Assembly: GCA_044892525.1 (NCBI GenBank)
Contig: CM097888.1
Location: forward strand, 14,322,001-14,386,000
Direction: 5' to 3'
Source of the DNA: Schmidtea polychroa
Taxonomy: Eukaryota
Length of the DNA: 64,000 nucleotides
A program made the translations under genes and the position numbers. Shown piece after piece: positions 8,295 to 41,777 of the stretch. The notes below the pieces were generated by a model. The model searched no databases, was not told where the DNA came from, and saw only the letters and a list, made by a program, of their open reading frames with translations. How positions within the stretch are numbered: the stretch's first letter is position 1; the number at the start of each line of letters is the position of its first letter.

Positions 8295-9202
8295 AGTATA
8301 ATAAATTTTCCTTCTCTTGATAACTATTTCTGTCTAATTTTGTTTGTGTGATAACTGTTTGATTTTCACTATCTCAGTGTTACCTTCCTTTTGATTTTAT
8401 GTTGGTATTTACATGCAAACCCATATCTTCTATTTTAGTAAAATATTGAATTAAATAACTAAAGTAAATTAAATTTTAAATTATATATAAATAAATATTT
8501 ATGAGTTTTATTTTAGATAATATGACTCAATGAAATATGAACATTAATTCCAAAGATAGACGAAATCCTTTAAATGGTAACTTATTATTAATGAATATTT
8601 CAAATTAATTTTATTATTTTAGATACTAATACGATTATTTTAAGATCCCCATTGACTGGTAATTTGAATAATTGAATAAATGTGGAAGATGGTAACTTAA
8701 TTATTATTTTTACAGATTAAATTTATTATATTATTGTTGGGCCAAGCTCCGAAGGTGTTGAAAAAACGAACCGAGGAAGGGATAGAGTAAAATAAAATAA
8801 AAACATATAAAAAATACGAGAAACATAGGAGGAAACAAATTAAATATCCAACAAAGAAATTAGAAAAACTAAATAAAATAACAAAACCTCTAAAGGAAAA
8901 ATAAGACAAGAGGGAAGGCACCTAATAAACGACAGTAAAAGAAAAAAAAATAAAATAGCAGAAAATCTAAGAAAAATGAAGAAAAACAAAATAAAAAATC
9001 ATCCATAAGGCTAATTAAAACAAAAAATGAAGTTACAATAAAATAACAACAAAACCACAGGAAAAACAGATAAAATAATAAAAAATAGGAAAATAAATAA
9101 AATAATAATAAAAATAGGAAAAAGTCATTAAAATACACCTGATTACATTAAAAAACATAAAAATTATAATAAACAATAATATTACATGCAAGTCGCGTCC
9201 TG

Positions 9203-9255
9203 ATTGGACGAAAAGTAATATATAAAGAGCGACAAAAATCTGTAGAGTATCATTC
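9203..9255 (+). promoter_or_regulatory. Candidate LTR core promoter (inverted CCAAT, TATA, Inr)
   Basis: ATTGG at 9203-9207, TATATAAA at 9219-9226 and TCATTC at 9250-9255, with the Inr A 33 nt after the TATA start. Duplicated at 35415-35467. Confidence 0.55.
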
Positions 9256-11533
9256 TAACCCGAAACTCTACAGGTAAAATTTTATCCTTTATATAATCAT
9301 TCTAACCCGAAACTCTACAGGAAAACTAGGAGCAACTCACAAGCACAGATTATTGAACCATATTCATACATCGGATAACATATACATTTACCGGAGATCG
9401 AATTCAGTTAAGCCGAACGAGTCTATCTAAAGAAAACTTATATTACTTTGATCTAACACCTTCGGAGATTTTTGGTAAATTATGTTTTTAGATTTTAGTA
9501 TGATGATTTAAATATTTATTATGAATTTAACAAGACGTTTATAATCCAATAAATTTCATATTTTAAACGAAGGTGTTGCTTTCTCTCTATGATGCTGGCG
9601 ACGACGTCCTCTGGAGTCCGGGTATGATGCAGTTGGATTTTTCGAACGTCCTACGGAGAGGACATTTACGAATATGAACTCAGGAAATTGAAGTGATAGA
9701 ACCAGCCCAAGATCCATATGAATTTAGAAACTAAAGTGATTACTTAATGAATAAGAGATTTATATTAACTAGAGTCATCATGCCCGGAATCCAAATGTCG
9801 TGGTCGCCAGGTGAACATTTATTTAATTGATTTCCTCATAATTCCATTATTTCTATATTGTTTTATTGAATAATTAAATTGTATTATTGCACATTTATTG
9901 AGAATGGAGTTGCGATGAGACGGGTCGAGTCGTCCTTCACACCGGTCCAAGAGCAGTGGGCAGAGATGCGTACTGCCTTGGGTGGGTTGTGAGGAGCGAG
10001 GAAACCATGTGAGATTTAACAAATCAAGTAATTGATTCTTTCATCGAGTGTAATCCACCCATCTTAGTCGTCGAAAACCATCCAATGCAGAAACTTCTGA
10101 GTGACATAGTTTGAATCAACGATACCTTGGGAACTCCAGGAGATATACCATTAAAACTATCATCAGCATTGTGTCCAATCACGTAATTAAATAATCTTTG
10201 ATTTTGAGCCATATTCGTCTTGCATTGAGAAAAGTGACTGTTAGAATGTCTGCCGGAAGGAGTTATTAATTTCGAGTTTTTACGAGAGATTCTCTGTACT
10301 AAGCCCATTTCGTATCTTACAATCTGAAGGTGCTTTGGAAGCTACACCGCCGGGAGGTTAGCGAATAGATCCATCGTCTTGCTTATCGTCGACTCCGAGG
10401 AGACTTAATGATCGACCAACGTCTAGCCGCTGTCATTGATAATAGCTCGATTTAGACATGAACGTAAACATCTCTGGATAGTAGATTAAGACACTGACTG
10501 TGAGTCCGAAAGAAACGGTCGCCAGCAACATCGAGTGAGCGTAGTAGACCGCCGGGAAATCGATTGATAAGATATCTGAAGCCTCAATTCTGAGCGAACG
10601 AGTTGACAGTCTTTATCTCAAAACCAATTAGTAGAGAAAAATCTAAATATAAAATCAATCTTATCTAGTAGATTCGCAATTAACCCACACAATTAGATTC
10701 ATGTGATTTCTGTGACACTCTCTCAGACTCCAACCTATCTAGAAAATCAGCCAGCGATATCATGTCTAGTGTGCAGATAGTGGATAGATTTACATCATAA
10801 TTACATAATGGTAGCAGGGGAGATGGCTAGGCTACATGTACAATCCGATAGCGAGATTACGTCACATTGAATGGTAGAATTGCTGCCCAGTCCAAGAACA
10901 CACATCGATGATAAATTGTACAATGCATGCATATGAACCGACCTGACGACATCTGTTAGCATACATAAAAAGAAAAACTAACACACCACTACTCACAAAC
11001 AAGCGTCGTTATGACGACATTTATGTCGCAAGATTTAAGGTGATCAAATAGCAAATTATGATAAGACTTAAATTGAATTTTGCGGTTCTTTTGTGAAGCC
11101 GATCACGACGTTTAAAACCCAATAGTCACCAGTCATACCGAACTAGGTTTTTGCGACACAACTCGCGCGTAATTTCAGGAATATAGTAGCGCGGGGAGTG
11201 GGGATGCTATTGCTAGGGAAGGATAATTATAATAAATTCGACTGTGATAAATTAATAAAAGCACATTAAATAAAAATGGCCAATTTCAGAAAGATAAACA
11301 TAAAGTCAAAGTTATGATAAATGTATTATTTCGAGTAATTCCGTTTTCTTTTTTCTCTATCAGTATGGATGCTTGCGGACAAATGAGTGTAAATGTTGAC
11401 CAGTGATAAGGGTAAGTGGGTCATTGTCGAGTAGGATGATTGGAAATAGGGTAAAAATTGTAGTCAAAATTTGGAAACGACACGCCAACGATTTTTTTTA
11501 ACTCTACAATTAACAAAACGTCTTGATCTTTAG

Positions 11534-12295
11534 ATGCCTGCTTCAACCGCTTCGAACAAGGATCTTCGTCCATGCTTCTCCTGCGCAGATAAAAACGCAG
11601 TCATAGCCCAACTCCACTTATATATCGGGGCACTGAAAAAGAGAATTGATCTCTATGAAGGCACGTGGTTCTCCCCGCCACAAATGAAGGAGGAGCGCAG
11701 TAAAATTCTTCGGTTGGAACATTGCCGGGACAGCCTCCTAGAGGAGAGTCGCTGTCAAAGATTGACGATCAAGGCGCAATCGGAAGCCCTCCACAAGGTC
11801 TATACGGAGGCAGAATTGGCCAAACGGGTACGAGAATTTCCCGTCTTGGAGGCCAGCAATGTTTTTCCAACTCATCACCAAAGTATTTCCACCGCTACAA
11901 CCAGTTGTTTGGGGCACGGCTCCTATCTGCCGCCTGTTCCAGCACCGGCCTTATACAGTCATCAGCCGCCGGTAGGTGGTCCATCCGACCCTATCTTGGC
12001 TCCAGTTTTAGTGACATCCGTTACAGCACCCGATGCGGACAGTCGCCAACCACAGCGTAAAAGAAAACGGCCGACCCGAGCCGCCAAAAACCAAAGACGT
12101 CGAGAGGCAATCGCGGCTCTCGAGGCGTCGTTATCTGTGGCCAAGTCTTCTCTGGAAAAGTTATCGTCGATACCCTCTATCCCCACAAAGGAGATATTCC
12201 GGGTGATCTCACCCGATGGGGTCCAGCTCGTGCGAGACCGTCGGTTACCGGTTGACATCGACGAGATGATCGCCGAAGGGGAAGTTTTCCCATAA
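11534..12295 (+). CDS. LTR-encoded 253-aa protein (CxxC, coiled coil, Pro-rich linker, Arg-rich motif)
   Basis: ATG directly after TTTAG. The protein is identical in both LTRs, and a diverged homolog exists at 55073-55791 (-). Confidence 0.7.
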   Translation: MPASTASNKDLRPCFSCADKNAVIAQLHLYIGALKKRIDLYEGTWFSPPQMKEERSKILRLEHCRDSLLEESRCQRLTIKAQSEALHKVYTEAELAKRVREFPVLEASNVFPTHHQSISTATTSCLGHGSYLPPVPAPALYSHQPPVGGPSDPILAPVLVTSVTAPDADSRQPQRKRKRPTRAAKNQRRREAIAALEASLSVAKSSLEKLSSIPSIPTKEIFRVISPDGVQLVRDRRLPVDIDEMIAEGEVFP

Positions 12296-12836
12296 TTGGA
12301 CGTGTCGATTTACCCATCTCTCATCCGACGCGATCAAGCTCAACAATCTTTATGAATGACTTAGATGATGCGTGCTTGTACTCTCCTACGTGTTGTGATC
12401 TACAATTTGTGTTCATATGTATCCTCAATTTCATTAATATAATCATAGTATTCGTTATGTTGTCCCGTAAAAGTTATAGAGTAATGAGTGATGTCTTGAT
12501 GAATGAATTGGAATGACCATTGGAGAATGTGGGTCGTCCCCTTGGACCAGGGTCGTACCCAGAATGCATGACGAGTATGGGTAAGACCTTCTTAGGCACC
12601 GGGGAACCTGAACTGAGAGTGGGTCCGTAGTAGTCCTAAGGCAGGGGCTCACCTGCAGATCAACTCCGACCCGTGTGAGCAGCACCAACGTGGGTAGATC
12701 ATCACGGGCTCACATGAGGGAATATTTGTAAATCATGCGGGTTATGTGGGGGAAGGGCCCCGAGCTAAAGGAACATGAGGCCAGCTGCACTACGAATGTC
12801 CGTTTGACTCCTCCCATATACGCCCAACATGATTTT

Positions 12837-12854
12837 TGGGGGCTCAGCCGGGAT
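12837..12854 (+). promoter_or_regulatory. Primer-binding site, tRNA-Pro-like
   Basis: TGGGGGCTCAGCCGGGAT matches 16/18 of the standard tRNA-Pro PBS TGGGGGCTCGTCCGGGAT. It begins 7 nt after the LTR end. Confidence 0.85.
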
Positions 12855-13322
12855 ATCATATATTGATTTGTTTGATTGTCTATTTTTGTGTTATGATGTG
12901 TTAGATTAACAATTTAATTTATTATGATAAAAATGGAATCGGGGCTGAAACGAATTATAGTGCAATGAAATGATACGAACTGTCTGAGTTTGAAAGAGAG
13001 TATGTATGAATAAAAACGAACCTAAACGAGTTTGAATGAAAATAAGGTTGAATGAATGTGAAAGAGTGCGGTGAGAAAAGAAAACGGGAATCACTTATTT
13101 TGTTTAGTCTAATTTATTAAATTAAAAAGAGGGATGAAAGGAAGTAATGATAATAAAAGTAAATGATTAAAGTGGAAAATATGACGAGGGAATTCCAAGG
13201 ATGGAATAAAATACAAAAGTTAGAAACATTAACAATAAAAGTCAAACGAAAATTAAATACCAACCTGATAATATCATTAATAATACCCGCAAAACAAATA
13301 ATAACAACACATTTTTTTAGAT

Positions 13323-13802: not shown

Positions 13803-14384
13803 CACGCGATCAGCACTCGGTGAAAGAATTGATCTGATTGACGATTTGACTAAATCCTTTATGTTTAATTGATGGGTCAATAATTTTTTAGTAAATGTGT
13901 ATATTGCATGTGGCTTAAGCCAAATAATGAATAAAATGTTTTGTGTGTTCATTTTATTGTGAATTCAGTAACTTTATGATAATTTTCACCATAGAGAGAG
14001 AGCATCAATAAACTTAATTTAAACAAATAATATAAAGTGGAACTAGTCCCAACATAGGGTTAAAGGGGGAATAAACCGAGCCACCTTCGGGAGGTACGTT
14101 ATACAAATGCCGTTTGGGAAGGGACAACCGATCACCCCGAGTAAGAGATGTAAGGCGAGGTACCATCGCGAATATTGAAAAGTTTCTACGGTATGGCTGA
14201 TCACCATACCAATGTGGAAATGGATCAATGCGATCGTTTTGCGTTTTGAGCAAGGGGGGAAAGGGGAAAATATTCTCAAGCGGTGAAGATTAGGTCGACA
14301 AATAAAGTAAAAAATAAAGGAGATGACAGTTTAGAATAAAAGGAGAGGAGGAAATAGAAGCATGCAGATCAGGAGATATTAAGG

Positions 14385-14673
14385 TCGAGTTGTTGAATAG
14401 TCCAACCGGTCAGAAGAAGAAGATTGAGCTGTGAATAGTGCCAGCCAGTCGTAAGATCGAGTTGTTGAATAGTCCAACCGGTCAGAAGAAGAAGATTGAG
14501 CTGTGAATAGTGCCAGCCAGTCGTAAGATCGAGTTGTTGAATAGTCCAACCGGTCAGAAGGAAGAAGATTGAGCTGTTGAATAGTGCCAGCCAGTCGTAA
14601 GATCGAGTTGTTGAATAGTCCAACCGGTCAGGAGAAGAAGATTGAGCTGTTGAAAAGTGCCAGCCAGTCGTAA
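14385..14673. repeat. Tandem array, 4 copies of a 72-74-bp unit in the element leader
   Basis: Units start with TCGAGTTGTTGAATAGTCCAACCGGTCAG at 14385, 14457, 14529 and 14603. No variable spacers. Confidence 0.95.
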
Positions 14674-14966: not shown

Positions 14967-16056
14967 AGACAAAAGTTCTACAGAATATTTTTGGTTTAAA
15001 CCGGTTAAACGAATTTTGTTTTGGTTCCAGAGCAGAACCGAGTAAAAGGAAATAGAGATGAAAGATTAAATGAATAAGCGGAACCGCGCAAAAGGATTAA
15101 GGAAAATATGGGGGGTAATAAGCAGTAACTGACAACGACCTATCGATATTATAAATGCTAACTATAGATAATTTATACGACTATATAGATAATTGTTACT
15201 ACCCCAAATAGATAATTAAAAATCGACGAAAACTATGGGTTGATGGGTAATTATATTCCGCGGAGAAGTGTATGAGGGGAAATGAAGAGAAGCATAACAG
15301 AGGCCCAAAAATGGTGTCTGTGCTTGAATGTGGTAAAAAGGAATGATTGATTCGTGTAAGCAAATGCAACACGATATCATTTTTTCATTGTAGATACCCA
15401 TCCAACCAAGTCAATTCAGAACCAGCCCAAAAGGAAGCCAGAGAATATACAAACAACCCAGGAAAAGCAATTCAGAACCCGCATAAAGAAAAACAAGCCA
15501 ATCCGAACACGGAGGACGACAACGACATCTTTACCTACGACGGAATTATCGAAATACTAAGCATCGACGTGATAGCAGCAGTCAATCAAGGACTCAGATA
15601 TCTCCTCCGGAAATCAGCCGAGAAATTACGCGGAATATTCCTCGAAGGAAACACTATCAGAACCAAACTTGACCAATTCAGCAGCCGCTAACCGTAGAAA
15701 AATCCACGTGAAAAGACAGAAAAGAGTAAGAAAGAATCACGGATAAACCCAACCTTAGATCTTCAAGTAAGCCAGGAGACGTATTATTTTCAGGAGACGA
15801 ATTAGATCAACTCAAAAGAGGACGATCATTTAGGCAGCAGAGAGGAATATCACAAGGAGCAAAAAGACCCCACAAAACACCGATATACGATCAAGAAAAC
15901 CCCACAGCCGGACATACGCCCAGTCGATCTAGAAGTAGAGAAAGCCTATCCGATATAACAAACAACCTAACCGGGTCAACAGAAGAATTATCCGTCCATA
16001 GTTTAGCTACATCGCTGGAAAATTTAAAAGGAATAATCGAGTTTCAAGAACCAATC

Positions 16057-16962
16057 ATGACGAATGTGGTAAAAACCGACGAATATAAAGAAAAATTTAG
16101 AGGCGAACCATTCAACGGGAATGCGAACAAGTTGGCAACGTTCATAACAAATTTTGAAGTCTATATCGATGTGTGTGGATGGACATCAGAAGCAATTAGC
16201 AAACGGATGCCGTTGTTTTTATGTGATAGCGCATTAGAAGTGTATCTAGAAGCAAAAGAAAGAAATACGAAGTTAGACAATTGGGAAAGCATCAAAACAT
16301 TTTTGAGAAAAACATTCGGAGCCAGCAAACCAATAAATCAAGCCCTAGGAGAATTAGCGAGTAGAAAACAAAGAGCAAATGAATCCATAACGTTGTATGC
16401 GAGTGAATTGCGAAGATTGGCAAAGAAGGCCATGAACGGAAACTTGCCGGAGGAAAATTTAATTGGTTATTTCATAGAAGGACTGCGCCGAGAAGAGGTA
16501 AGGGCCTCGGTGGGATGTCAAATGTGTAAAACACTAGAGGAAGCCATAGATTGGGCCACGAGATGCGAACTCCACCTCCCGGCACAAATGAATGTCATGC
16601 AAGAGGAAGGAAGAATCGCAACAGCAACGGTAAAAACTGAAAATGGAGAGAACAGCAATCATGAACCAAAAATGAATCAGTTTATACCCGGTGCGCATCA
16701 AATTTTCAAACCACCGCAAGGACGATCAAATGGGAATAACAGTGAACGCAACAACCCGAACAATGGGAATAATTTTAATAATCGACGAAACACGAACGAT
16801 AACAAACAATGCCGAACATGCGGTAAACCAGGACATTGGGATAGAGATTGCTACCGAAACGCAAATTGCAATAGGTGTGGACGACGAGGACACACGGAAA
16901 ATATATGCCAATTAAGAGGATGTTTTAACTGCGGTCAACTAGGTCATATCTCAAGAGACTGT
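16057..16962 (+). CDS. gag: Gag portion: capsid-like domain and three CCHC zinc knuckles
   Basis: PFNG...W...L...A...Y and RKQRANESITLYASELRRLA are retrotransposon gag features. Knuckles CRTCGKPGHWDRDC, CNRCGRRGHTENIC and CFNCGQLGHISRDC span 16810-16962. Confidence 0.92.
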
Positions 16963-19900
16963 CGAGAAAGGAGCCAACAACAACGACCACCACAGCGAAA
17001 TAATAACTATGCACCAAATCCGCAACGACAAAGTAATCCTAGTGAGGGAAAGCAAATGAATGTGATGCAAGAAATTTCACAAATGAAGCAGATGATGCAA
17101 CAAATGATGAGACCGAGACAAGAGCAAGTACCACAACAAACCCAGAATATACGCATGATGAGGAGCACCGAGAATCTTAACAACTATGAAGTACAACAAC
17201 ATGCACAAGAATGGCAAAGACTACAAGCTGAAGAAGAGAGGATAAAAAGAGAGCGAATCCAGCAGCGACAAGAACAACCATTACGAATAAATATGATGAG
17301 AATGGCAAGGGAGATAAAAGAGCAATATTGTTACAATTACGGTAAAAATCCAAGAGTTGTACCTATGAGCGAACCAGAGAAACCGAAAGAAACAATTCCA
17401 GCAGCAAAAAAGGAAAATTCAACAACATCGCTAAAAGGAAATCAGAGAATTCAGAAAATATTTTGGAAAAAGATAAAAGATAAAATCGAAAGAGAAAATG
17501 AAAAAACAAAAACAGAAGCAGAAGCGGAAAATGACGAAAATGAAAAACAGATTAATCATCTAAATCATGATATGATACGAGGATTAGACTCAGAGGAGCT
17601 AACGATACTCGAGAACAAAAAATTAAAGAAAGTACCAAGAATGAGAAATTTACGAATTAATATGATGAGGACAACAAAGAAGGTGTTGTCAACAGATGAC
17701 GATGAGGATTATGTGAGTAGCCTTGGTGGAGAAATGTTACAGTTAAATGAAAATATCGACCAACTAAGAGAAAAGATCGGAGCAGATGAGGATGAAAGTG
17801 AAAGCAACGTGACAAGCGAAAGCGAAGACGAGAATATCGAAATGAAATTGAGAAAAGAAAGAGAAGAAGCGATAAAACAAGTAAAGGAAATACTTCCAGT
17901 GGTGGTAAGAAACCAGGAATTCATTGACATCATACCATACAGACGCTTCACACAAAGGATAATGAAACTAGAAAGAAACGAAAAAGATCTAATACCAAAC
18001 GAGGAAAAAGCGATAATAAAGAAGTATATGGAAAAAATGAAACAAGCGGAGACAACACGCTATGTAATAAAAATCGGAACGAGCAAAGGACTCGAGAGAA
18101 TATGGATAAAAAATGCAGTTACAGACGATCTTTTCGATTGGATAAGAGAACATTTGGGCAGCTCGAGAAAGAAAGAATACCTGTATCAATATCAAGGAGA
18201 ACAAATCAAACCAGACATGCACCTAATAGATGCATTGATCTGGCCAGGAGAAACTCAAATATTGAAATTGCATAAAGAGAAGCAACCAGCGAATATTCAC
18301 GAATGGGCTAAAGACGCCAAGGCCGAGTATGACTTTAACATCAAGCTGAAGCTGGAGCAAATAAAACAATGCACCTTGCGACGAAATCTAGATAAATTAA
18401 TCAAACAAATCCAAGAACAAGTTGAAGATAACTGGGATTTGCTCATAACAAGACGAACTGCAGACATGCATGAACTAATGAGCCGACTGCGAGATACAGA
18501 ACTGCTCAGGATGAGCGATTGGAGAACCATAAATTTGATCCACAAATACGGAAGATTAAAAGAAACGCAACCGCAGAAATTAGAAATAACCATATGGTTA
18601 CCAAATGAGGAGAAACGACGAATAAAGATGAGTAATCAGAGTACGGTGGATGACTTAGTAACCAAGATAAACCAAGAGATAACGGAAAAAGTACGAAGCG
18701 AGAGCAGCGATGGTATGATAGATGACGTAGTCATGATGTACGATAAAATAATACTACGGGCTGAAGACGATACCTCGTTAAGTGAAATGGGAATGTGGGA
18801 TAATCATCAAATCATCAGAATATTGCCCATGGACGAATTCCGAACAAGAGATGTAACATACCAGAAAGAAATACGAGACAGGATGAAAACGCTATATCAA
18901 AAATCAGTAGAGATAATTGAAATTCATCAACAGTGGCTAAAAGAAAAAGAGCTTCAAGGAAAAATAAAGAAACTAAGTGTTAGATCCTGCAGACGAACCC
19001 CATGGGAAAGGATGTGGAATGCGGAAAACAAAGAATGGGAAATCAGGAAAGGGATTTTCGTGGAAACAGACATTGGTGAGATAGAAAGCGAATCAGAAGA
19101 AGAGGAAGATGAACCTCCAAAATACGAAGAGGACGAAATAAAATCGACATCGGACGACGAAAGCGAAACGGATGTTACGTCAGAAAGTGAAACGGAAACC
19201 AGGCATATTCATGCGATGAGAAAGAAGGAACGCGAATACGCCGACATAGACGGGGAAGAGGCAAAAGAAGCGAGAGAACGAGAAGAGAAGGAAAGATATA
19301 AACAATTAGGTGATATCTTAGCAACGGGAGCAAAAAATCAAAAACGTCAAGTAATAGCATTGGCTAACATCATCCTAAAGACATCAGAGAATATCCACAA
19401 TCTAAGAGAAATGGCGAAAGCGATTGAGGAATACCGACAATATAACGAATGGTACCCAGAACAGCTAGAACAAATTATTAGGAAATGGAGAAACCAAGAA
19501 TGGGCACAAGATACCCAGGAAAGGTATCGTATCCGAGTCAAGTATCCCGACAAAAGCATTGAGGATATAGAAGTACATCCAACAACAAAGATCAGAGAGT
19601 TAAAAAAGAAATTAGCATACGAAACTCCATTTCACCTACAACTATTCGGAAAATCGTTGGATGATAATGCAGATGTCGGAATAACACCCATGAGATTGGG
19701 GGAGATCAATGTATTGACAATGGCAGAAACATTGGGAAAACCGATTAAAAGGAAGAGCAAATCAAGTAAACCTACGAAAGGTAGCTTGAGTACACCAAGC
19801 CCTAACAAAGTAGCGAGTAAATCGAATGAAACCGAGGAAATCGAGGAAATTATATTGGAAGACAGCGATGAAGGAGCGGGAGAAAGATCACCAATTCTGG

Positions 19901-22900
19901 TAAGATGGCCGACAGGAGCCGAAATATGGACAACGAGCCAACCATCAACTAGCTATCAACAACCACATAAACTGAACATAGAGGAAATTATCGATAATAC
20001 AACAGAAACCGAAACCGACGAACAATTCCAACGACAGAAAGGACCAACGAAAGCAACACCAGAAGGTCAAACAGACAAAATAATAGACGAATGGAACGAA
20101 TGGCTGAGAAACAACGATAGCTCATTGCCCAGAACAGATAATGAGAGAAACCCGAAGTATGAAACGACAAGAGAAGCCGGAACAATGATGGAAAAACGGG
20201 CAAAAGGAAGACCTAGGAAGCAAGGAGAAAAACCAGAATTCAAAACTAGAGAACAACTGAAACAAGAACAAGGACAAGTCAGATTAGAGAAACTGGATAA
20301 AATAGTGTGGGACTTAAAAGAAGCTCAACCAACAATCGAGAGAGGCGAAAAATGGATACGAGAGCTAGTAAAAGATATGCTAATAATAACGAACCCACAA
20401 TTGCGACGGTTATGGCAACGAAAAGTAGCAAGCGTAGATGCCAGACAACTATGGAATACAATATCCGGAATAATTCCGAAATTAATCAAAGAGAAGACAA
20501 AAACCACTAAAACCGATTGGGAAGAGACAAGAAGAGTAATTGAACAATTAACTTTAAACGCAAACGACGACGAACATCATTTAGTAGTATTAACGTATCT
20601 AATGTACAATTTGATGGGATTAGCAGCAAGGAAAATACCTAACAAACAATTCGCAAATCATGTAGAAATGACCGTTACAATCATTGAAAATACAATCGAA
20701 CCACATATTATCCGCGCCGGTGGGTGGAAAAGACTCATACAAGCGCCACGAAAAAACGAGCAAGAGAGATCAATGCAAATTCGGTTGAAGAAATTGCTAA
20801 ACGAGCTGGAATGGGAATTACCATTGAAAGACCCAGCCAGCAGAAAAGCGTCGATTAATTCACTAATGATGACCATGATGATATGGATGCTCTGCACTAG
20901 TGGAGCCGCGGGATTTACTATTTACGACTGTGACAATTCAATAATAGGAGAAAGATACTCCCTGAGAGATATAGAGGAATGTAGACAGGCATCTCCGAAT
21001 AAATTAGATATAGTAAAAAAGAAAGTCTCCTATCACGTATACCAAGAATCAGATTTCATTAGAACGCAAGCTAGAGAATGCGTAGTATCGAAGAAAGTGT
21101 TGGCATACTACTGTGGACAATACTCATATTCAACCCTTATATTACCGGGATTAGATAAAGAAATAGTACCTATACAACGGGAAGACTGTAAAGAACTTTT
21201 TAGAACCGGAGCGATGAGAATCAGGGATGGAGTAACCATACACGGACAAAGCGGAATGATCAAGACGGAAAGTATCTATGTAGCCGGACGAGTAAAATCA
21301 ACTGATGGATCATGTAACGGAGGCACATATACGATCAGAGGAGAAGTGATCTCGGGAGTAGTAGTAATTGAGTCCTACACAGTGGAGTTGAAGGAATACG
21401 AAGCACAATTCGACGCAAACAACTATCAAATGAAAACCAACCCAGCATGCAGAGCTACGGAAAACGTGTGTAGAACGGGAATTTCGACTATAATATATGA
21501 AGCTAACACCCAAAAATGCCGACTGCAATTGTTAAAAAGTGCTCTATTCAATGAAGTAAAAGGAGAAATTTACGAAAACGAGGATGACGATGAAGAGAAT
21601 GGGAACGTAAGGATGCGAAATGGGAAACCAGTCCCGCCATCCCCCAAAGAAAAGAGACTCACAACCCAAAAAACACCAACGGCATTAATTACAGATGATC
21701 CGGACATCGGCATGAGATTCATTAGAGAAAAAGAGACCACCAAATGTGACAGCATAGTATATCGGACGAACTACGCAGGTATCTACATGTCAAGGCAAGT
21801 AATAGACCGAGCAGTGGGAAAGGTAGCAACAGAGGACGTAAAATTGTACCTGTACGCTAATAACAAAATGGACTTTTTATTTCATCGAGGACAAACGACA
21901 ATGCAAAAAGTGTATTACGATCTTATACAAAATGACTGTTCATTGAATAAAGAGATACTAAAAACAAAATTAGCTATCGCAATAACACACCCAGATAACA
22001 CAATGCCATCACTCCCGTTACCGGATGGACATTTTGGTAGAATGGTGGGAGAGGTAATGTATACATATGCATGTACCAAGACATTTGCGCGACTGCCAAG
22101 AAAGCCCACAATTCCACCAGGGAAATGTGCAAACGAATTAGAAATTAGCTACAAAGGGCGGAACAGATTCGTTCAACCAGTCACTCGAATTATGAACCCA
22201 ATTGGATTTTATCCGAACACCTTTAACTGTTCAAATGCATACGGACCGTTATATGAAAAACCCGATGGGAAATGGATAATGTTACCGGTAAAAACCGAAG
22301 TACAAGAACCTAAAAAGTTTGGATTAATAGAACTCGCAACAGAGCAAGACTTCAAACCAATTGATGTGTCAAAAGCGGGTATGTACTCACCAGAGGATTT
22401 AGAAACGGCACGATTAAACGTATTATTCCCAGCAAGGCGAGAATCCATTCTATCAAATATGGTTACCATAACTGGGGGAACGAATTTCCAGTCAGGCCCC
22501 AATTACGAACTATTATTGTCACCCGATCATTTTCAACAAGCCACGTCAAACATGATGAAAGCAATGTGGGGAAGATTTCTAGTGTTCGGTCAAATGATGG
22601 CAGGAATATTGGGAATCATCTTAATTATCCAGATTGTTAGAGTGATATTGACTCAAATGCTAGCGTGTTTTGATATCTATAAGAGAGAAAAGAAAGTAAA
22701 TTGGAAGTTGATAGTAGGTTTTCTACCATTTTTGGCAAAAACAATGGTGTTGCACGGTCATTCTAAAGATATACACAGAATAAAACGATTAATCAAAATA
22801 CTGACAAAAATAAAAGGGACTGACGAGGAGGTCGGTAGACGATTTCGGAAAACAATGTATGATGAAGCAACAAGGACGCAACTGAAAAAGAACAAACCAA

Positions 22901-25900
22901 AATTTTTGGACAGATTTAGAAATCGGTCAAACAGCAGCGATAGCGATGATGACGACAACGGGAATGACAAATACCCATATCCAAGTAGAAACCCGAATGA
23001 AAAGCCAATAGAAACAGCGCCATATTGGGAGAAAGAAAAAACAAATACCTGGATAACCAACGGAAGTTATATACCACCAGATATCGTTGGACAACAAACA
23101 GCTTTGACCATGACACAAAATATGTATCCACAGTTACCAAGTCAACCAGGGATGAACTATATGCCGAACCGAAGAACGAAAAGCGTAGACCAAGCGGATG
23201 ACGTAAGAACGATAGCAGTGATGAGTTCACCAGGAGGCGCGGCAGTAACAGTCATGATCCAAATCAACGGGAAAGAGACAAGCGCAATGATAGATACCGG
23301 AGCAAATGTATCAGCAATAGCAATCAACCAAATACCCAGTAAATGTTGGAAAGACATCGAACAAACAACTATCCATATCATCGCATGCAGTAAAGAAACC
23401 GTAGACGTAGTAGGAAGATGGTGGACTACGTTAAGATATCAAGATAACGAAATTGAAACGTATCTAGCGGTGATACCCAAACTGAGTGAACCATGTATAA
23501 TCGGAACGGATTTAATGCCAGAATTGTTCAAGGAAGTAGTGATCGATTTAACAACAATGTGTCTAAAGGACAAAACGGGTAGAATATGCAAGATGAACGC
23601 AATAATTAGATGTCCGGAGAAAATAATTGTACCAGCAAAATCACAGATGATATGTCAAATAAAAGTGGATGCAGGAATGGAAGGAGAAGTCATTTTTGAG
23701 CCAAGCAAATCATTCGAAAAACGACGAGAATTACCATTAGCAAGAGAAATAATAACAATAAATGAAGACGGGGAAATACCAATCAACATCACAAATTTCG
23801 AGGAAGAAGATAAAATCATATATGAAAATGAAAGATTGGGTAGATTGACACCCATGATAGACATCGAATTACCAAAAATCACCAACGAAACAACGAAAGC
23901 TGACGAATTATGGATAATTGACAGCACCTTGCTAACGGAAAAAGAAAAGGAAAGACTTCAACAATTATTGATAGAATATAAAGATATATTCGCAATTTCG
24001 GATTTAGATTTGGGAGCATGCGATGTTACATTACACGCAATACCATTAATAGACGAAACTCCAATCGCACTACGTCCATACAAACTAGCAGAGAAGCAAA
24101 AAGAGATAGCCGAAGCAGAAGTACAAAAAATGCTAGATGCACAAGTGATCGAACCAAGTTGTTCGCCATGGCAATTTCCCGTAGTCATGGTGAAGAAAAA
24201 AGATGGTACTCAGAGATTCTGTATCGATTATCGGAAATTAAATGCAGTAACAAAAAGAGACACATACCCGTTACCAGACATCAATGAGATGTTACTTATG
24301 TTACAGGGGGCCGCATATTTTACATCTTTAGATCTGAAAAGCGGATATTGGCAGATCAAAGTCAAAGAGGAAGACAAAGAGAAAACAGCATTCACATTGG
24401 GCCGAGATCTATACCAATTCAGGAAAATGCCGTTCGGACTGACCAATGCCCCAGCATCATTCCAGAGATGTATGAATTTTGTCACACATGGGATCAAGCA
24501 GTGTATGGTATATATTGATGATTTATTAATATATTCAGCAACATTCGAACAACATTTGGAAGATATCAGAAACGTGTTCGTTCGATTACGACAATGGAAA
24601 TTGAAACTCAAACCATCCAAATGTGATTGGGCAAAAGAAAAGGTTACGTTCTTAGGACACATAGTGTCAGCAAAAGGCAAAGAACCAGATCCAAGAAACA
24701 TAGAAAAAATAAAAACATGTCCAGCACCAAAAACTGTCACCCAAGTTCAAGAATTTCTCGGATTATGCGGATATTATCGAAAATTCATCAAAAACTATGC
24801 AGGTATTGCGAAACCAATACAGGACTTAGTGAAAAAGGATATTTCATTTATTTGGGGTGCAGAACAACAAAAAGCATTTGAGACATTGCGAGATAAATTA
24901 ATTGAAGCTCCAATACTGGTACATCCTGATTTCAAGAAACCGTTCTTATTAGCAACAGATGCAAGTGGATATGCAGCCGGAGCAATATTAGGACAACTGG
25001 ATGAAGAGGGAAAAGAAAGAGTGATTGGATACTACAGTAGAACGTTTAAAAAGCATGAGAAAAACTATTCCGTAACCGAGAGAGAAGCATTAGCAATTAT
25101 ACAAGCGATTAAACATTTTCGATATTTGTTGTGGGGACACGAAATATGTATCACAACAGATCATCAACCACTAGTATGGCTTGGCCAACACAAAGAAGCT
25201 TCAAGTAGATTGATGCGATGGGCAATGCAGTTACAAGAATATTCACCGTTCATAAAATTCAAAGCGGGAAGAGCGAATGCCAATGCGGATTGTATGTCCA
25301 GATTTATCTTTCCAGATTTAGTAGATCACGAAACGCAACGAATATGTCTGATGGTAGCAGAAGATCTAGATTTTTGCCAATTACGGAAAGACCAACAAGA
25401 GGATACAGAGTTGAAGCAAATCATTGAATATGTGAAAACAGGGAAAGCAGAGGTATATGAGAAAGATCAAAAATTGAAGGAGCATATGGATAAACATCGA
25501 CATCGATATATTATCGAGAAAGACTGGTTGTTGATAATGGATGGAGAAAAAAGACTGATGTGCATCCCCGAGAATAGACGTAAAGAGCTGCTAACACAAT
25601 ACCATGACGGAAGACTCGGAGGACATATGTCATCTAAAAAGACGTTGGCACGAATGAAACAAAAGTATTTTTGGCCTACATTGACCGAGGATGTAACGGA
25701 ATGGGTGAAAAATTGCATAACTTGCGCAACCAGAAAAAACACGGGAACCAAATGGAAGGCACCATTAAAGCCAATGCCAGTACCAGCAGAACCAATGACC
25801 ATGATATCAATGGACGTGGTCGGTCCACTACCAGAATCAGATAGAGGAAATATATATATATTGGTAATCACAGACTATTTGACGAAATTCCCCGAAGCAT

Positions 25901-28900
25901 TCGCTATGGCAGATCAGAAAGCAAGAACAATCGCAAAAATACTAGTAGAGGAGATATGTTGTCGATATGGAACACCAAAACAGATATTAACTGACCAAGG
26001 AACAAATTTCATGAGCGAAATAATGAGCGAAGTCACCAACTACTTCAAGATCGCAAAATTAAGAACATCACCGTACCATCCACAAACTAATGGTATGACG
26101 GAAAGATTCAATGGAACACTGATTCAAATGTTATCAAATTATGTCGATCGTCATCAACGCGACTGGGACGAGTATATAAAATTATGTTTAATGGCTTACA
26201 GAATGTCGATTCACGCGTCCACAAAGATGAGTCCGTTCAAGTTGATGTACGGCAGAGAATGCAATATGCCAATGGATTTGGAGTATCAGCCACCAATATC
26301 ACAGTACATGGAAATAGACGATTATGTAACCAAGTTCAAGGAAAGAATGCAGGAAATCTGGGAAACTGCAGGATTGAATATAAAATTTTATCAGGAAAGT
26401 TACAAAGATCTACATGATAGAAAGAAAAACGTCAAACAGCATACGTTTCAAACAGGCGATTGGGTGATGATCGAAACACCAGAATTAATTCTAGGAACCA
26501 CCAAAAAATTACAACGAAACGGTAAAGGTCCGTATGAGATCCTATTCATCGGAGAAACCAATGTAAGAGTACGATTGGTAAACAACCCCTTCACAAGGCC
26601 AATATATGTAAATGTGGCACGATGTAAGCCAATACCGAAAACAGCCACCAGCCAGCCGGAAGGGCGAACATTAACAACAAGATCACAAACATATAGAATA
26701 AATATGTTACAGCAGATAAACGAACCAACAGGTAACCGATTGGGGTTACAACCATCAGAAGCCGAGAAAATCATAAAGGAAGTGAAAGCTAAAATGCCCG
26801 GATGGGCAGAAGACAGATTAGATTTTGAGATATTGGGAGGTCTGCTAACAATGATCGAAAATTATGCAAACCGAGAAAGGACACACCCATTACTCAGGGT
26901 AGTAAAAAGTCAATGGCCTATATTATTTACGATCACAGACCATTATGGAGATACACCGCTGCACAAACTTTTAAAGGTCGGGAATAATGAACAAATACTG
27001 GAAACGATCGAAGCATTTCGCGATTGTAACGTTTCAACAGATCAAGAAAATAACCAAGGTTACACTCCACTAATGATAGCAGCCAATCGGGATAAAGCTA
27101 AAGATATTATCATCGCATTACTTGAAACTGGGTCAAAGATAACCACACAAGACCACAACCAGAAAAATGCACTACATCATGCAATCGAAGGGAAAAGTAC
27201 GGAAGCCTTCATAATCTTAGTAGATCTATTATCATATGAGGATAATAGGGAGATAGGAAACATGTATGACGGGTTATTAACTGCAATCAAAGAGAAATTA
27301 ATAATAATTACTGGAATACTAATTGCGTGGAGGAACCCGATCAAAAACGATTATATGGTAGATATAAACGAAACATTTACCAAAGGAGAAAATACCTTGA
27401 TGAGGGAAGCGATGAGAGGACATCACCTATTCGAAATTCCAAATCAACTACTACAACGTGGCATAAAGTTTTCAAATCACAAAGACGAACAACTAATCAG
27501 AAAACGAATTACCAACTTCGAAAAAGCTATATCTCAATTTACCGATAAAGTACAAGTAAAATTTTGGGAAACCGTGAGTGTATTATATATGATGGAAACT
27601 ATGAACAACATTCGAGAAAACTACCTAAGTATTATTCAAGTGCTTACGGCGGAAGAACGCATTAACAGTTCAAACAAGAAAAAGATAAAAATAAAGAAAG
27701 TAAAAACAAGGGAGTCCGAGGAACAAGTCGATCAAATAATAACCGAGATAGCAACAACAAGTAAACCCAAGATAATAAACTCAGACCAGGAGATAATAAT
27801 ACGCAAAGCCAAAGAGGTGTTCTTTGAAGAAATGCAAGATCTATCCGATGAAGCGATACTAGCAAAAATAACAAAAACAGTACACACCTACGCAAGAGAC
27901 CAGACCACAAATCTAGACATAGAAAAAATAAAAACATTTATACCACTAGCATTCACCTTACCAACAAAAGACTCAAGAACACCATTACAACAAGCCATTT
28001 TAGCAGCAAAAGAAAACAGAGCAATAACCATCATAAGAATCCTGGGAGACTTCGGAGAAGAATCTAATGCAAAAAACGAACAAGGAGAAACAGCAATAAT
28101 GTATGCAGCCATAACAAATATACACCCGAAAACATTACATATACTACATCGATCGGGATCAAGACTGGACGAAATATCAAACGAAGGAAATTCTACCATG
28201 GATTGGGCAACCATACAACCAAACTTGGAAATGATTAGATTCATTTGTAAAAATGCTACAAGAACTGAGGTAGAAAATATCTGTAAAAACACGTCACAGT
28301 TCCAATGGAACACGATACGGATGAACTTAGAAGCCATGAAGTTATTGCTAACATGGAAAATACCGCAAAGCAATAAACATGCAATAAATATAAATGAGTT
28401 CTACGAAAACGGAGAAAATGCTATGGTTAAAAATACACTAACAAAAGGAGGAACTCCGAAAATCATAATGATCGTATTGAACAGAGAAGACCTCAAATTC
28501 ACGCAAAATCTAAACGAACAAAAGCGGATTGGAAAACATCGCCGTATACAATTGAGAGAACTGGTAAAAGAATGGAATAGAAAGAGACATGTAGCAACAG
28601 GCAGAAAAGAGTTTGAATTCGAGGCAAAATTAGCAAGGAATAGAGTGTTAACGGCATATCGCAGATTATTGAACGACATAAATGTCGAGGACGACATTTC
28701 AAACGATAGCGGGGGAGATAAAGACGATAAAGACGACGATAATAATGAACAAGGTCGAAGCGGGAATGGAGAGAAAGAGAAATCAGAGGAAAATAATCAA
28801 GGGAATAACGACTCAGGTATAAAAAAGGAGGAAAATAAACCGGGAAGCCGAACAAAGGAAGAGGAAAAGACGAATAATGGGAAACAGAGGGTATGCCCAC

Positions 28901-30521: not shown

Positions 30522-31394
30522 ATGGATAAGCGACAACGAGAAGAATTCAAAGAAATTGTCGAACAAGTCAGAAAGTCCACCACAATTCGAATACACAACC
30601 ATGTAACGTGTGGAATATGCAAGAACTTATTAAGAGAACCTCACCAAACCCGATGTGGATGCAGAATGTGCAGAGAATGTGTAGAGGAGGTAATAAAGAA
30701 GGGACCACAATGGTGCCCAGTATGCAAAGAAACAATGATAACAAGTTTGGGAGATACAAACGAAGATAAAGCAGCTGTAAAAGATATGATGAATGCAAAC
30801 CTAGGATGCAAAAACACCCCATGTAATTGGCGAGGAGTGATATGGGAAGTGAGGCAACATATGGAGCAATGTGAATATAAAATCAGTCAATGCAAACGTT
30901 GCCAAGAAGAGATTAAAGTCAATGAAGAAGCAGAACATCAAAGTCGATGCGAAGAAAGACTGGAGAAATGTGAGTATTGCGGAGAAACCGACACCTGGAA
31001 AAAACTAATCAGTCAACATCACAACATACAAGAGGAGAAAGTGTGCGCAGAATTCAGAGGAGAATGCCCCAACAAATGCGATAAACCCGGAGTAATAAAA
31101 CTCGCTCAACATCTGAAAGAATGTGAAAGGAAAAAGATAAGGTGTGTGTTAGGAAAATGGGGATGTCAGAAACAATTACACCGAGGGGAATTACCCCAAC
31201 ATCTAGCAGAAAACGTATCAACACACGCGGAAATATGGTCAACGGTATTACAAGAAAACGAAAGGAAAACCGAAAACTTAGAAAGAGAAATAGTCTCGCT
31301 AAAAGCGTTGGTAAAAGAACTATTGGAAGAAAAGGAAGCATTCGAAGAGGCGAGAACAAGCACAAAGATACAAACAGATCTAGTAGAAACTTAG
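30522..31394 (+). CDS. TRAF homolog N-terminal part (RING, TRAF zinc fingers, coiled coil)
   Basis: CGICKNLLREPHQTRCGCRMCREC...CPVC, CKNTPCNWRG...HMEQC and CVLGKWGC...HL are TRAF-type motifs. Ends at TAG 31392-31394. Confidence 0.88.
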   Translation: MDKRQREEFKEIVEQVRKSTTIRIHNHVTCGICKNLLREPHQTRCGCRMCRECVEEVIKKGPQWCPVCKETMITSLGDTNEDKAAVKDMMNANLGCKNTPCNWRGVIWEVRQHMEQCEYKISQCKRCQEEIKVNEEAEHQSRCEERLEKCEYCGETDTWKKLISQHHNIQEEKVCAEFRGECPNKCDKPGVIKLAQHLKECERKKIRCVLGKWGCQKQLHRGELPQHLAENVSTHAEIWSTVLQENERKTENLEREIVSLKALVKELLEEKEAFEEARTSTKIQTDLVET

Positions 31395-31400: not shown

Positions 31401-31910
31401 ATGGTGAAAGAACTACATCAAAAAGTAAGCGAATTAAACCTCAACGAATTAATACCAACGGCTCCATACATATGGAAGATAACGGGAGTAAAAGAGAAGA
31501 TGCAGAGAGCGAGAAATGGAAAGGATACAACATTACTAAGTCCAGCATTCTACTCATGGAAAAACGGGTATAAAATGAAAATGAAAGCATACCCCAATGG
31601 GGATGGAAGTGCATATGGAACGCATTTCTCAGTATTCTTCTTGATATGCAAAGGGCTATACGACGAGTTAATAGAATGGCCATTCAAAGCAAAAATAGAC
31701 CTCGCAATGATGAACTATCAAAGTATACATGAACAGAGTTTCCATACAGCGGGAAGCCTCGTATGTTACCAAAGACCCTTGGAAGAAGAAGGACCAGCAA
31801 CTGGAGCACCGAATTTCATCCTACAGCGGAAAGTAGAAGACATGACGAGAAACGACACTATATACATAAAAATAGCGGTGAGGCGAGACGGGAAGAGTAG
31901 GACTGAGTAG
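31401..31910 (+). CDS. TRAF-C/MATH domain protein, in frame with the TRAF N-part
   Basis: YIWKITG, SPAFYS...GYKM...YPNGDG...THFSVFF...G.YD..IEWPF, YQRP and DTIYIKIAV. Confidence 0.92.
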   Translation: MVKELHQKVSELNLNELIPTAPYIWKITGVKEKMQRARNGKDTTLLSPAFYSWKNGYKMKMKAYPNGDGSAYGTHFSVFFLICKGLYDELIEWPFKAKIDLAMMNYQSIHEQSFHTAGSLVCYQRPLEEEGPATGAPNFILQRKVEDMTRNDTIYIKIAVRRDGKSRTE

Positions 31911-34714: not shown

Positions 34715-34945
34715 CATCGACCATTCATAAACTTTGTGTGTATAAATCCGGTCACCTAAAGTGGCCACTGCTTGCTTATTTTTGTCCTTTTATCTGTTTA
34801 ATTAAAGTATTATTTAGTTATTTTAATTTTATGTTTGTGTGGATTTTGATTGTGAGATTAGTTGTTATACTGAAAGAAGGTACGATTCGAATGTACGATA
34901 TTATGTGAATTGCGGGACGCAATTTTAACGGGCCCCGGAGTGATT

Positions 34946-37900: not shown

Positions 37901-39041
37901 GGAGGAGCGCAGTAAAATTCTTCGGTTGGAACATTGCCGGGACAGCCTCCTAGAGGAGAGTCGCTGTCAAAGATTGACGATCAAGGCGCAATCGGAAGCC
38001 CTCCACAAGGTCTATACGGAGGCAGAATTGGCCAAACGGGTACGAGAATTTCCCGTCTTGGAGGCCAGCAATGTTTTTCCAACTCATCACCAAAGTATTT
38101 CCACCGCTACAACCAGTTGTTTGGGGCACGGCTCCTATCTGCCGCCTGTTCCAGCACCGGCCTTATACAGTCATCAGCCGCCGGTAGGTGGTCCATCCGA
38201 CCCTATCTTGGCTCCAGTTTTAGTGACATCCGTTACAGCACCCGATGCGGACAGTCGCCAACCACAGCGTAAAAGAAAACGGCCGACCCGAGCCGCCAAA
38301 AACCAAAGACGTCGAGAGGCAATCGCGGCTCTCGAGGCGTCGTTATCTGTGGCCAAGTCTTCTCTGGAAAAGTTATCGTCGATACCCTCTATCCCCACAA
38401 AGGAGATATTCCGGGTGATCTCACCCGATGGGGTCCAGCTCGTGCGAGACCGTCGGTTACCGGTCGACATCGACGAGATGATCGCCGAAGGGGAAGTTTT
38501 CCCATAATTGGACGTGTCGATTTACCCATCTCTCATCCGACGCGATCAAGCTCAACAATCTTTATGAATGACTTAGATGATGCGTGCTTGTACTCTCCTA
38601 CGTGTTGTGATCTACAATTTGTGTTCATATGTATCCTCAATTTCATTAATATAATCATAGTATTCGTTATGTTGTCCCGTAAAAGTTATAGAGTAATGAG
38701 TGATGTCTTGATGAATGAATTGGAATGACCATTGGAGAATGTGGGTCGTCCCCTTGGACCAGGGTCGTACCCAGAATGCATGACGAGTATGGGTAAGACC
38801 TTCTTAGGCACCGGGGAACCTGAACTGAGAGTGGGTCCGTAGTAGTCCTAAGGCAGGGGCTCACCTGCAGATCAACTCCGACCCGTGTGAGCAGCACCAA
38901 CGTGGGTAGATCATCACGGGCTCACATGAGGGAATATTTGTAAATCATGCGGGTTATGTGGGGGAAGGGCCCCGAGCTAAAGGAACATGAGGCCAGCTGC
39001 ACATCGAATGTCCGTTTGACTCCTCCCATATACGCCCAACA
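34946..39041 (+). repeat. 3' LTR (4096 bp)
   Basis: Same termini as the 5' LTR. Differences noticed are one extra A in an A-run, T>C at 38465 and TA>AT at 39003-39004. Confidence 0.96.
37746..38507 (+). CDS. LTR-encoded 253-aa protein, 3' LTR copy
   Basis: Identical translation to 11534-12295. Confidence 0.7.
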   Translation: MPASTASNKDLRPCFSCADKNAVIAQLHLYIGALKKRIDLYEGTWFSPPQMKEERSKILRLEHCRDSLLEESRCQRLTIKAQSEALHKVYTEAELAKRVREFPVLEASNVFPTHHQSISTATTSCLGHGSYLPPVPAPALYSHQPPVGGPSDPILAPVLVTSVTAPDADSRQPQRKRKRPTRAAKNQRRREAIAALEASLSVAKSSLEKLSSIPSIPTKEIFRVISPDGVQLVRDRRLPVDIDEMIAEGEVFP

Positions 39042-40981: not shown

Positions 40982-41777
40982 ATGGCAGTTGCTGCTCAAG
41001 CTGCGTTATTAGATGAATTAATGGGAAAGGGAAGGAACGTAGCAATAGGAAATTTATCATTACCACACTGGTCCGATGAAGAAATTTGCAAACATTTTTT
41101 AGCAGGATTATGTCCACATGATTTATTTACAAATACTAAAGATGATTTGGGATTATGTGATAAAGTTCATGATCAATCGATGTTAGAAAATTATAAAAAA
41201 AGTGGGAGATATGGAAAAATGAAATATGAAGGGAAATTATGCTCCTACCTTAAGGATTTAATTACGACAGTTGAAAATCGTATAAAACGTGGTCAGAATC
41301 GTTTGAAAAAAAATGGAAGTTTAGTTCATTCTAATTATAATTCAGAAAGAGAAGAAAAATTAGAAGAATTAAATGACAACATTAATGAAACTTTAGTAAA
41401 TGTAGAAAAATTAGGCATTGAAGGAAAAGTTCAAGAAAGCCAAGTGCTATTAGAATTGGCAGAAAGTATAAAAACTGAAAAAAGTAGATTAGAAAAAGAA
41501 ATTGAAATGTATAATTTACAGGTAATTTTATTATTTTTTTATAATTAATAAAGTTGAATTATAGGCAAAAGAATTGGAAGTTTGTTTAACATGCGGAGCT
41601 TTCCAAGTTAAAGGTGACGCTCAACAGAGAATCGAAGAGCATCTTCAAGGTAAAATGCACATTGGATACGCGTTAATTCGACAGTATTTATCTGAATTTG
41701 CTCTTAATTCTGTAAAATCGAAATCAGTCGAACAGGAACTTGACAAAATTCAAAGGTTGACAATTAATAATAATTAA
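40982..41777 (+). CDS. LUC7L3: LUC7-like U1 snRNP-associated splicing factor (LUC7L3/CROP-like); exons 40982-41521 and 41565-41777
   Basis: LLDELMG, CKHFLAGLCPHDLFTNTKDDLGLCDKVHD and LEVCLTCGAF...GDAQQRIEEHLQGKMHIGY. A 43-nt GT-AG intron at 41522-41564 keeps the frame. Confidence 0.88.

Follow-up and report, generated by a model that had tools for sequence, protein, structure and literature searches.

The window analysed here, a 64,000-nt stretch of the Schmidtea polychroa genome (GCA_044892525.1, contig CM097888.1, positions 14,322,001 to 14,386,000, forward strand), contains a Burro-like Ty3/gypsy element whose LTRs each enclose an open reading frame (Table 1). The two LTRs are 99.9% identical. 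Outside the ORF they differ by one indel and two adjacent substitutions, and the ORF copies themselves differ solely by a synonymous GTT/GTC change in codon 240 (position 12253). This had already been noticed in an earlier sequence-only reading of the locus, which also described the ORF, its N-terminal CxxC and the basic motif starting at 12056 as we find them. A single synonymous change is no proof of coding by itself.

Table 1. Features of the element and of its LTR gene (positions in the window)
Feature	Position	Strand	Description
Burro-like Ty3/gypsy element	8734-39044		30.3 kb, two 4.1-kb LTRs
5′ LTR	8734-12832	+	4.1 kb, ends TGTTGGG...CCCAACA; second copy 34945-39044
U3	8734-9249	+	inverted CCAAT (about 9201-9209) and TATA (about 9220) boxes; start site inferred
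Exon 1, non-coding	9250-9273	+	24 nt, inferred start of R
Intron 1	9274-9320	+	47 nt; its 3′ 24 nt repeat exon 1
Exon 2, non-coding	9321-9474	+	no ATG; ends at donor 2
Intron 2	9475-11533	+	2,059 nt; donor 2 at its 5′ end, acceptor adjoining the ATG
AATAAA poly(A) signal	9548-9553	+	inside intron 2; marks inferred end of R
Conserved stems in intron 2	9595-9999	+	9595-9630 pairs with 9774-9810; hairpin 9930-9999
LTR (U5) gene	11534-12295	+	253 codons; second copy 37746-38507
Core	11573-11878	+	CxxC (residues 14-17), hairpin 20-89, conserved N-x-x-P-x-H-H (109-115)
Basic motif	12056-12106	+	Lys/Arg run, Ser/Thr helix cap, basic helix; 17 residues from residue 175
C-terminal module	12206-12274	+	invariant Arg225, then acidic amphipathic motif (residues 240-247)
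Structured non-coding block, conserved	12533-12725	+	3′ end of U5; donor-like GTAAG at 12581
Primer-binding-site-like sequence	12840-12857	+	7 nt after the 5′ LTR
Acceptor for spliced gag-env-pol mRNA	15375-15393	+	no ATG from there to the start at 16057
Polyprotein	16057-29904	+	4,615 aa, Gag-Env-PR-RT-RH-IN-ankyrin

The polyprotein occupies a single frame, in which Pfam recognises Gag, CCHC knuckles and then PR-RT-RH-IN, and an Env-like fusion glycoprotein (PF24664, E 7.7e-72, residues 1870-2209) lies in frame in the Gag-protease interval. Among the cargo, ankyrin and MATH domains are clear by Pfam, Bcl-2 reached only E 0.078, and a BIR domain had no Pfam match in the element's proteins. RING and MATH ORFs are also encoded; a RING/zinc-finger ORF (30522-31394) and a MATH ORF (31401-31910) lie 6 bases apart and have the appearance of a split TRAF-like protein. 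The primer-binding-site-like sequence is one that we take to be of tRNA-Pro type, and the leader before gag holds about four 72-nt tandem repeats (14380-14673). The target-site duplication of the element is imperfect (TTAT at 8730-8733, TGAT at 39045-39048); solo LTRs have exact 4-bp duplications. A host LUC7-family exon (40982-41548) follows the 3′ LTR at a distance of 1.9 kb, in the same orientation. Elsewhere in the genome, tandem element arrays with three or four evenly spaced LTR genes were seen (G000:C1:72646425-72699960 and C1:145063309-145163760).

In an alignment of full LTRs, 17/17 have kept four signals ahead of the ORF (the inverted CCAAT box, the TATA box, the donor near 9475 and the AATAAA at 9548), and sequence identity between these signals is only 30-64%. 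The donor-poly(A) pair is present in 40/50 LTRs, distant clades included. From these signals we infer a division into U3 (8734-9249), R (about 9250-9570) and a U5 of 3.3 kb. As the ORF lies downstream of both the conserved TATA box and the poly(A) signal, it would belong to U5 and not to U3, given the presumed start site. The R-U5 region would then span 9250-12832, about 3.5 kb, which far exceeds the usual length, and together with a conserved gene in U5 this is unlike textbook LTR anatomy.

The size of intron 1 ranges from 44 to 52 nt across LTRs (L032-L183 and the window). Within one LTR, the two exon-1 copies are identical in 31/40 and agree at 23 or more of 24 bases in 38/40 of the LTRs with a donor, and between different LTRs the repeat has only 51% identity. 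This pattern fits splicing of intron 1 in the 5′ genome RNA and not in the 3′ R, with strand transfer rewriting the second copy in each cycle. A literature search by title found no paper on a cap-proximal intron ending in a copy of exon 1. In most of the 17 LTRs the end of U3 (9240-9248) is complementary to the ends of both exon-1 copies (9265-9273 and 9313-9320); only RNA read from the 3′ LTR would be able to pair in this way, and its splicing could be blocked as a result. Many LTRs also have a reverse-signal-like TTTATT or TTTATA just after the AATAAA, and one contig (run X6, record 15, 9538-9961; run type guessed) ends in a T-run before 9538, resembling antisense polyadenylated RNA.

A genome search with the ORF gave 6,951 candidates, 150 of which were scored; the best 38 of the 150 are full length with 93-100% identity, and 35/38 are free of stops. 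Choosing copies by the non-coding LTR block led to the same 38 places, and of 30 copies retrieved in this way 28 were intact and 2 had one stop. The CxxC-codon pattern matched the genome exactly 2,335 times and a control pattern 0 times, which indicates at least 2,335 gene copies; the gene is present in thousands of copies because it is carried in every LTR. For estimates of selection we used 70 copies, the 30 best matches and 40 hand-picked from other rows, a sample biased to intact copies, and grouped them at 94% identity into 21 lineages (210 pairs). The overall pN/pS was 0.168 (pS 0.70, pN 0.12), far from the value near 1 across LTR copies that the sequence-only reading had associated with a spurious gene. 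By region the ratio was lowest in residues 12-103 (0.041) and the basic helix (0.107), higher in the tail (0.18) and highest in the linker (0.32), and the variable columns at the three codon positions numbered 132, 83 and 245 of 253. Variants confined to a single LTR (pN/pS 0.19) did not differ from shared ones (0.15, p 0.62), a comparison that is uninformative since the sample was ranked by protein similarity. The pattern of codon substitutions identifies the ORF as a gene whose protein product is maintained by purifying selection.

It is this conservation that raises the ORF above chance, and not its motif or the single synonymous change: comparable basic 17-residue stretches occur 4 other times in the six frames of the A-rich element and once in its flanks. 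The opposite view, of a non-functional open frame kept by RNA structure or base composition, is largely refuted and highly improbable, as synonymous sites are near saturation and non-synonymous sites are not, the other five frames over the ORF have 7.5-10 stops on average (four of them with ratios above 1), ORF folding z-scores are only -1.1 to 1.0, and the ATG and its acceptor are kept while the intron sequence is not.

Three more distant clades of the ORF were found in the same genome at 33-58% identity. In addition, ten unnamed database proteins share its core at 33-43% identity, most of them fused to unrelated host domains. In P0002-P0004, P0006 and P0008-P0011 the core is joined to an SNF transporter, CRAL-TRIO, actin, phosphatase or other host domains. 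These fusions are probably false gene models built from LTR exons, so relatives of the LTR gene already contaminate public gene models as false host-protein fusions.

A splice acceptor precedes the ATG in 70/70 copies, its pyrimidine-AG directly adjoining the ATG in 67 and standing one base away in 3. Because this spacing varies, the reading frame must begin with the ATG itself and cannot be carried over from an upstream exon. Gap-pattern searches for LTRs with the promoter close to the CxxC codons yielded 9 short LTRs, in which that distance is only 228-350 nt, against 2,335 gene copies. In one of these (L186) the 20 bases before the ATG equal the exon 2 end of L039 (20/20), and in L189 and L190, which flank a single element, they equal the exon 2 end of L069 at 19/20 bases; a null for such a join never rose above 14/20 in 600 draws. 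This exact loss of intron 2 indicates that transcripts with donor 2 joined to the ATG were once made and, on at least two independent occasions, copied back into DNA. The L189/L190 element (G000:C1:144997130-145025647) is 25 kb long, and both its LTRs are without intron 2 and the AATAAA and have kept intron 1; its origin is an RNA with spliced leader and full internal region that was copied and inserted.

For L191/L192, L187, L188, L193 and L217 (11-15/20 bases) a precise intron loss could not be shown. L191 and L192 are short LTRs of one element (G000:C3:35745473-35776291), the 5′ copy with and the 3′ copy without intron 1. We dropped loss of intron 1 as a proof of splicing, as deletion between the two exon-1 repeats yields the same product. 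The gap-pattern search, with spacings of 116-227 nt outside its range, found no direct join of exon 1 to the ATG. In public RNA contigs (X1, X6, X7, X2) no joint at the predicted splice sites was seen among the 15/50 joints listed, which is neutral evidence, and peaks of RNA depth over the ORF are not readable as expression.

Downstream, 129 ATGs lie between the presumed start site and gag. In 10/10 further elements an acceptor is present 580-690 nt before gag with no ATG after it, and most accessory ORFs of the element also have an AG just before their ATG. We read the element as multiply spliced on this evidence and on the two events of exact intron-2 loss, which agrees with the multiply spliced genome postulated before. 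The pattern of acceptors and upstream ATGs implies that the genome RNA must keep introns with working sites and that it is probably not the mRNA for Gag.

The predicted model of the 253-residue protein, which is about twice the size of Rev, has a mean pLDDT of 65.8 and a pTM of 0.34. A helical hairpin at residues 20-89 (20-42/48-89) and a helix at 182-211 are predicted with confidence; the linker between them is disordered, and a further short helix covers 242-248. The hairpin agrees with the N-terminal coiled coil proposed earlier, and self-association through it is a prediction. The family alignment comprises 43 proteins from the genome, after removal of copies that were frameshifted, truncated or near-duplicates. 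The CxxC, H114, the Ser/Thr cap and R182 are conserved in all 43, and C64 and R190 in 42. All of the 42 proteins (of 43) that could be anchored by pattern have 8-11 Lys/Arg in the 17 residues of the basic motif, and the basic helix is retained in all clades, down to 33% identity. In distant database relatives the CxxC is absent, but a more Arg-rich motif stands in the same place. Two distant clades (L152-L185) have V/I-x-D-L-T motifs at different places, which we take to resemble SUMO-interacting motifs.

The basic motif, which the sequence-only reading had described as Rev-like and arginine-rich, is of mixed charge type across the family: the 17 residues contain on average 5.9 Arg and 3.8 Lys, so that Lys makes up a large share of the charge. 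The helix said to follow it with spaced leucines is present in the model (182-211), but the leucines are not a family-wide property, being found in only 24/43 and 32/43 proteins and missing in one whole clade. An export-signal pattern after the basic motif, scored with the generally known pattern classes, occurs in 18/42 proteins at differing places, compared with 47% of shuffled tails. Conserved instead is an acidic hydrophobic-x-x-hydrophobic-hydrophobic motif at the C-terminus, detected in 40/43 proteins with a mean net charge of -4.6, to which two clades add aromatic residues.

Homology and fold searches did not connect the protein to a known family. A word-index search of 5.8 billion proteins left 0/1,201 candidates standing, and a 49-row profile, run on the same set for forms of comparable length, recovered only P0012, already one of its rows. 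The window protein matched no Pfam family, Rev (PF00424) included; among the 49 aligned members one, a distant database relative, reached PF00424 at E 0.0013 with 19.1 bits, below the 22-bit cut-off. NCBIfam searches with 4 proteins gave one weak unrelated match, a profile search of PDB 0 matches at E 10, and comparison with the element's own polyprotein no similarity. The C-terminal profile against PDB found no activator; its sole match, GINS Psf3 at E 1.6, was taken as chance. Foldseek found no match at E 0.001 in PDB or a viral library, the C-terminal parts being barely covered, and an SIV Rev model at rank 24 (E 0.27) was not significant. The best VIA score (Z 8.8) fell on generic helical hairpins, and the best ESM Atlas scores (0.85 and 0.83) are leads only. 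P0001 and P0005 were dropped as repeat-protein noise. Taken together, there is no sequence or fold link to Rev or to the CERV protein of Cer1. Of the nuclear RNA-export or transactivator protein suggested at the outset, a nuclear regulator stays likely; a specific tie to Rev is not supported, with no Pfam, PDB or fold match. The ORF product is probably small and nuclear, with a role in controlling either the RNA of the element or its transcription.

Two stem regions in intron 2 show double-sided changes at 14/30 and 11/29 pairs across 17 LTRs. Kinship of the sequences inflates such counts, and the pairing still holds at 56-64% identity; a control segment in the same comparison gave no shared structure, and Rfam had 0 matches for the LTR RNA structures. 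The covarying stems occur only in RNA that retains intron 2. When 9 elements were compared with that of the window, RT-IN was 96-99% identical and the ORF only 36-75%, and in five of the 9 pS was 0.08-0.34 in pol vs. about 0.7 in the ORF, indicating that LTR genes have been reshuffled onto near-identical pol genes. The ORF did not follow the intron-2 stems: over 17 LTRs the rank correlation with them was 0.02 when the core was used and -0.13 with the basic region. Nor did it follow U3 (0.09). Given that the ORF reassorts freely against the stems, no protein-RNA co-evolution is visible, and reassortment against U3 and stems alike favours neither an RNA nor a DNA target.

Our leading, still tentative, interpretation is that the product of the ORF frees intron-retaining RNA from splicing or from retention in the nucleus, as a regulator similar to Rev and CERV in function only. 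Transcription would start near 9250, and splicing at donor 2 would skip the poly(A) signal and 43 upstream ATGs, so that the ORF would become the first cistron. The protein would enter the nucleus by means of its Lys/Arg run and self-associate through the helical core; its basic helix would bind element RNA, with the covarying intron-2 stems as candidate target, and its acidic C-terminal motif may recruit a host factor. As a result, the genome RNA, which must keep intron 2, could escape splicing, premature polyadenylation or nuclear retention, by a route without homology to Rev or CERV and probably without a classical CRM1 signal. We place such post-transcriptional control first because the need for it is evident, the basic helix is family-wide, the stems lie in the retained intron and CERV offers a precedent. 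The need is seen in that intron 2 has working sites, yet only the 9 short LTRs stand against 2,335 gene copies, and in the separate acceptor that serves Gag in 10/10 elements. Counting against it are the export-signal pattern, which is not conserved after the motif, and the Lys content of that motif, which resembles plain nuclear localisation signals. Moreover, packaging, dimerisation or poly(A) control would be equally plausible roles for the intron-2 stems, and the genome RNA might gain access to a host export route through the splicing of intron 1 alone.

The acidic tail may resemble UAP56-binding motifs. Such motifs are described in PMC5095910 and PMC12823420, whose passages gave no consensus with which to compare the tail. 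A more elaborate proposal, which we consider rather doubtful, is that an invertebrate element independently evolved a Rev-type system within its LTR, with an oligomeric basic-helix adaptor, binding to intron stems and non-CRM1 export, and with an LTR that rebuilds its cap-proximal intron at each reverse transcription. If that were true, thousands of solo LTRs would be potential sources of the regulator.

The acidic tail places another explanation close behind the preferred one. Here the core would dimerise, possibly around zinc, the basic helix would be a nuclear localisation signal or bind DNA, and the acidic tail would recruit coactivators to the U3 promoter or oppose PIWI-guided silencing. 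The make-up of the tail, acidic and hydrophobic with aromatics added in two clades, is usual for acidic activation domains, and the near-invariant CxxC, C64 and H114 would suit such a core. Burro1 is upregulated on knock-down of smedwi-2 in planarian (PMC8532177), so that such elements face transcriptional silencing. On the other hand, no bZIP, zinc-finger or other DNA-binding family matched, the C-terminal profile met no activator in PDB, the CxxC is missing from distant relatives, and the ORF reassorts freely against the U3 on which it would act. We regard a transactivator or anti-silencer as somewhat unlikely. Its bZIP version was rejected, as the 49 members gave no bZIP_1 or bZIP_2 match (2 weak HALZ matches were seen) and the leucines are not conserved across clades.

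An accessory effector directed at the host, comparable to the RING, TRAF and Bcl-2-like cargo of the element, would act in a nuclear host pathway and use the basic motif for localisation only. The element does carry several host-type regulators, and divergence of the ORF down to 36-38% identity among elements with RT-IN 96% identical is often met in host-facing proteins. Within a clade, however, the constraint on the core comes close to that on RT-IN, with pN about 0.02-0.03 and pS near saturation. The searches met no domain of host origin, and the place of the first cistron behind the promoter suits an autoregulator; we consider an effector improbable. Still less probable is a particle-associated nucleic-acid chaperone that packages genome RNA or assists in copying or transferring the strong-stop DNA of the R-U5. 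The unusual length of that region and a basic helix on an oligomerising core, which could anneal nucleic acids, would be in keeping with it, but Gag already has CCHC knuckles and the protein is made outside the polyprotein with an NLS-like run.

On balance, we tentatively assign the ORF an early regulatory role in this Burro-like retroelement, which is complex and multiply spliced. The sequence-only reading had further supposed that solo LTRs would spread this gene independently. Solo LTRs do carry the ORF, since 18/29 classifiable LTRs are solo with matched 4-bp target duplications. Solo LTRs arise by recombination in place, and an AATAAA between the stop and the LTR end is found in only 6/70 copies (64/70 are without it), so they multiply the gene but do not spread it independently. 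With that signal rare, a solo copy would need host signals, perhaps reached via the donor at 12581.

The genes MMTV sag and HIV nef lie in U3, and like them the present frame is protein-coding and duplicated with the LTR. The parallel with retroviral genes overlapping the LTR, drawn in the earlier reading, is thus a loose one: sag and nef are read from the 3′ LTR, and the present ORF, downstream of the start site and the poly(A) signal, would be read from a 5′ or solo LTR. A U3 gene of the sag/nef type was dismissed, as CCAAT, TATA, donors and AATAAA are upstream of the ORF in 17/17 LTRs (with the start site as placed above). A closer likeness in layout is found in foamy viruses, where R in either LTR has a splice donor ahead of its poly(A) signal, which therefore has to be silenced in the 5′ LTR and active in the 3′ LTR (PMC3694450). 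The donor-before-poly(A) order is shared; different here are a U5 of 3.3 kb that holds a gene and an R that holds a mini-intron ending in a copy of exon 1.

As for the element itself, it matches the description of planarian Burro/GYPSM1, giant gypsy-like LTR retrotransposons for which accessory ORFs are mentioned (PMC6431247); the match is at the level of that description. Shared are a size of about 30 kb, multi-kb LTRs, very many copies, one huge polyprotein (4,500-5,000 aa), Gag, a possible Bcl-2-like stretch, an in-frame Env before the protease, ankyrin repeats and MATH/TRAF cargo. Ours differs in a polyprotein of 4,615 aa, a MATH domain in a separate downstream ORF and no BIR match. The part of that description covered mentions no gene inside the LTR. 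Nor did the literature seen, in part, describe a gene in a Burro LTR or a U5 ORF (including PMC8532177, PMC11410931 and PMC6338049); the original Burro paper, figures, supplements and Repbase were outside the search and may show it. The element family is already known, and we found no earlier description of a spliced gene in its LTR.

Rev, Rex, Rem and Rec share a layout with a basic motif and an export signal that is usually C-terminal to it, as far as the source was seen (PMC5568270). The present protein has in common with them a basic motif predicted to be helical, a predicted helical or coiled-coil part, an origin from spliced RNA and structured RNA in the LTR region. It differs by the absence of a homology or fold match, a Lys/Arg-mixed motif, no conserved C-terminal export signal and a place in U5. 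Membership of the Rev family was rejected because the export-signal and PF00424 profile tests fail, which leaves room for a non-canonical signal.

The nearest functional parallel is CERV of C. elegans Cer1, which is made from a spliced mRNA and needed for export of the genome RNA, and which indicates that a Ty3/gypsy element can evolve such an export factor (PMC10309623, seen in part). Both are novel nuclear proteins (here a predicted one) of Ty3/gypsy elements, encoded by spliced mRNA, with conserved cysteines and arginine, and the Cer1 genome RNA likewise keeps working splice sites. The present protein has 253 aa, lies wholly in the LTR and shows no match to CERV, for which export was demonstrated; here export is what we propose. 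For the question of how giant Burro elements express and export a genome RNA rich in splice sites, the locus supplies a specific candidate regulator together with the splice junction of its mRNA and RNA segments that may be its targets. Should the protein be an exporter, it would be a further independent analogue of Rev outside the vertebrate retroviruses, beside the CERV of Cer1.
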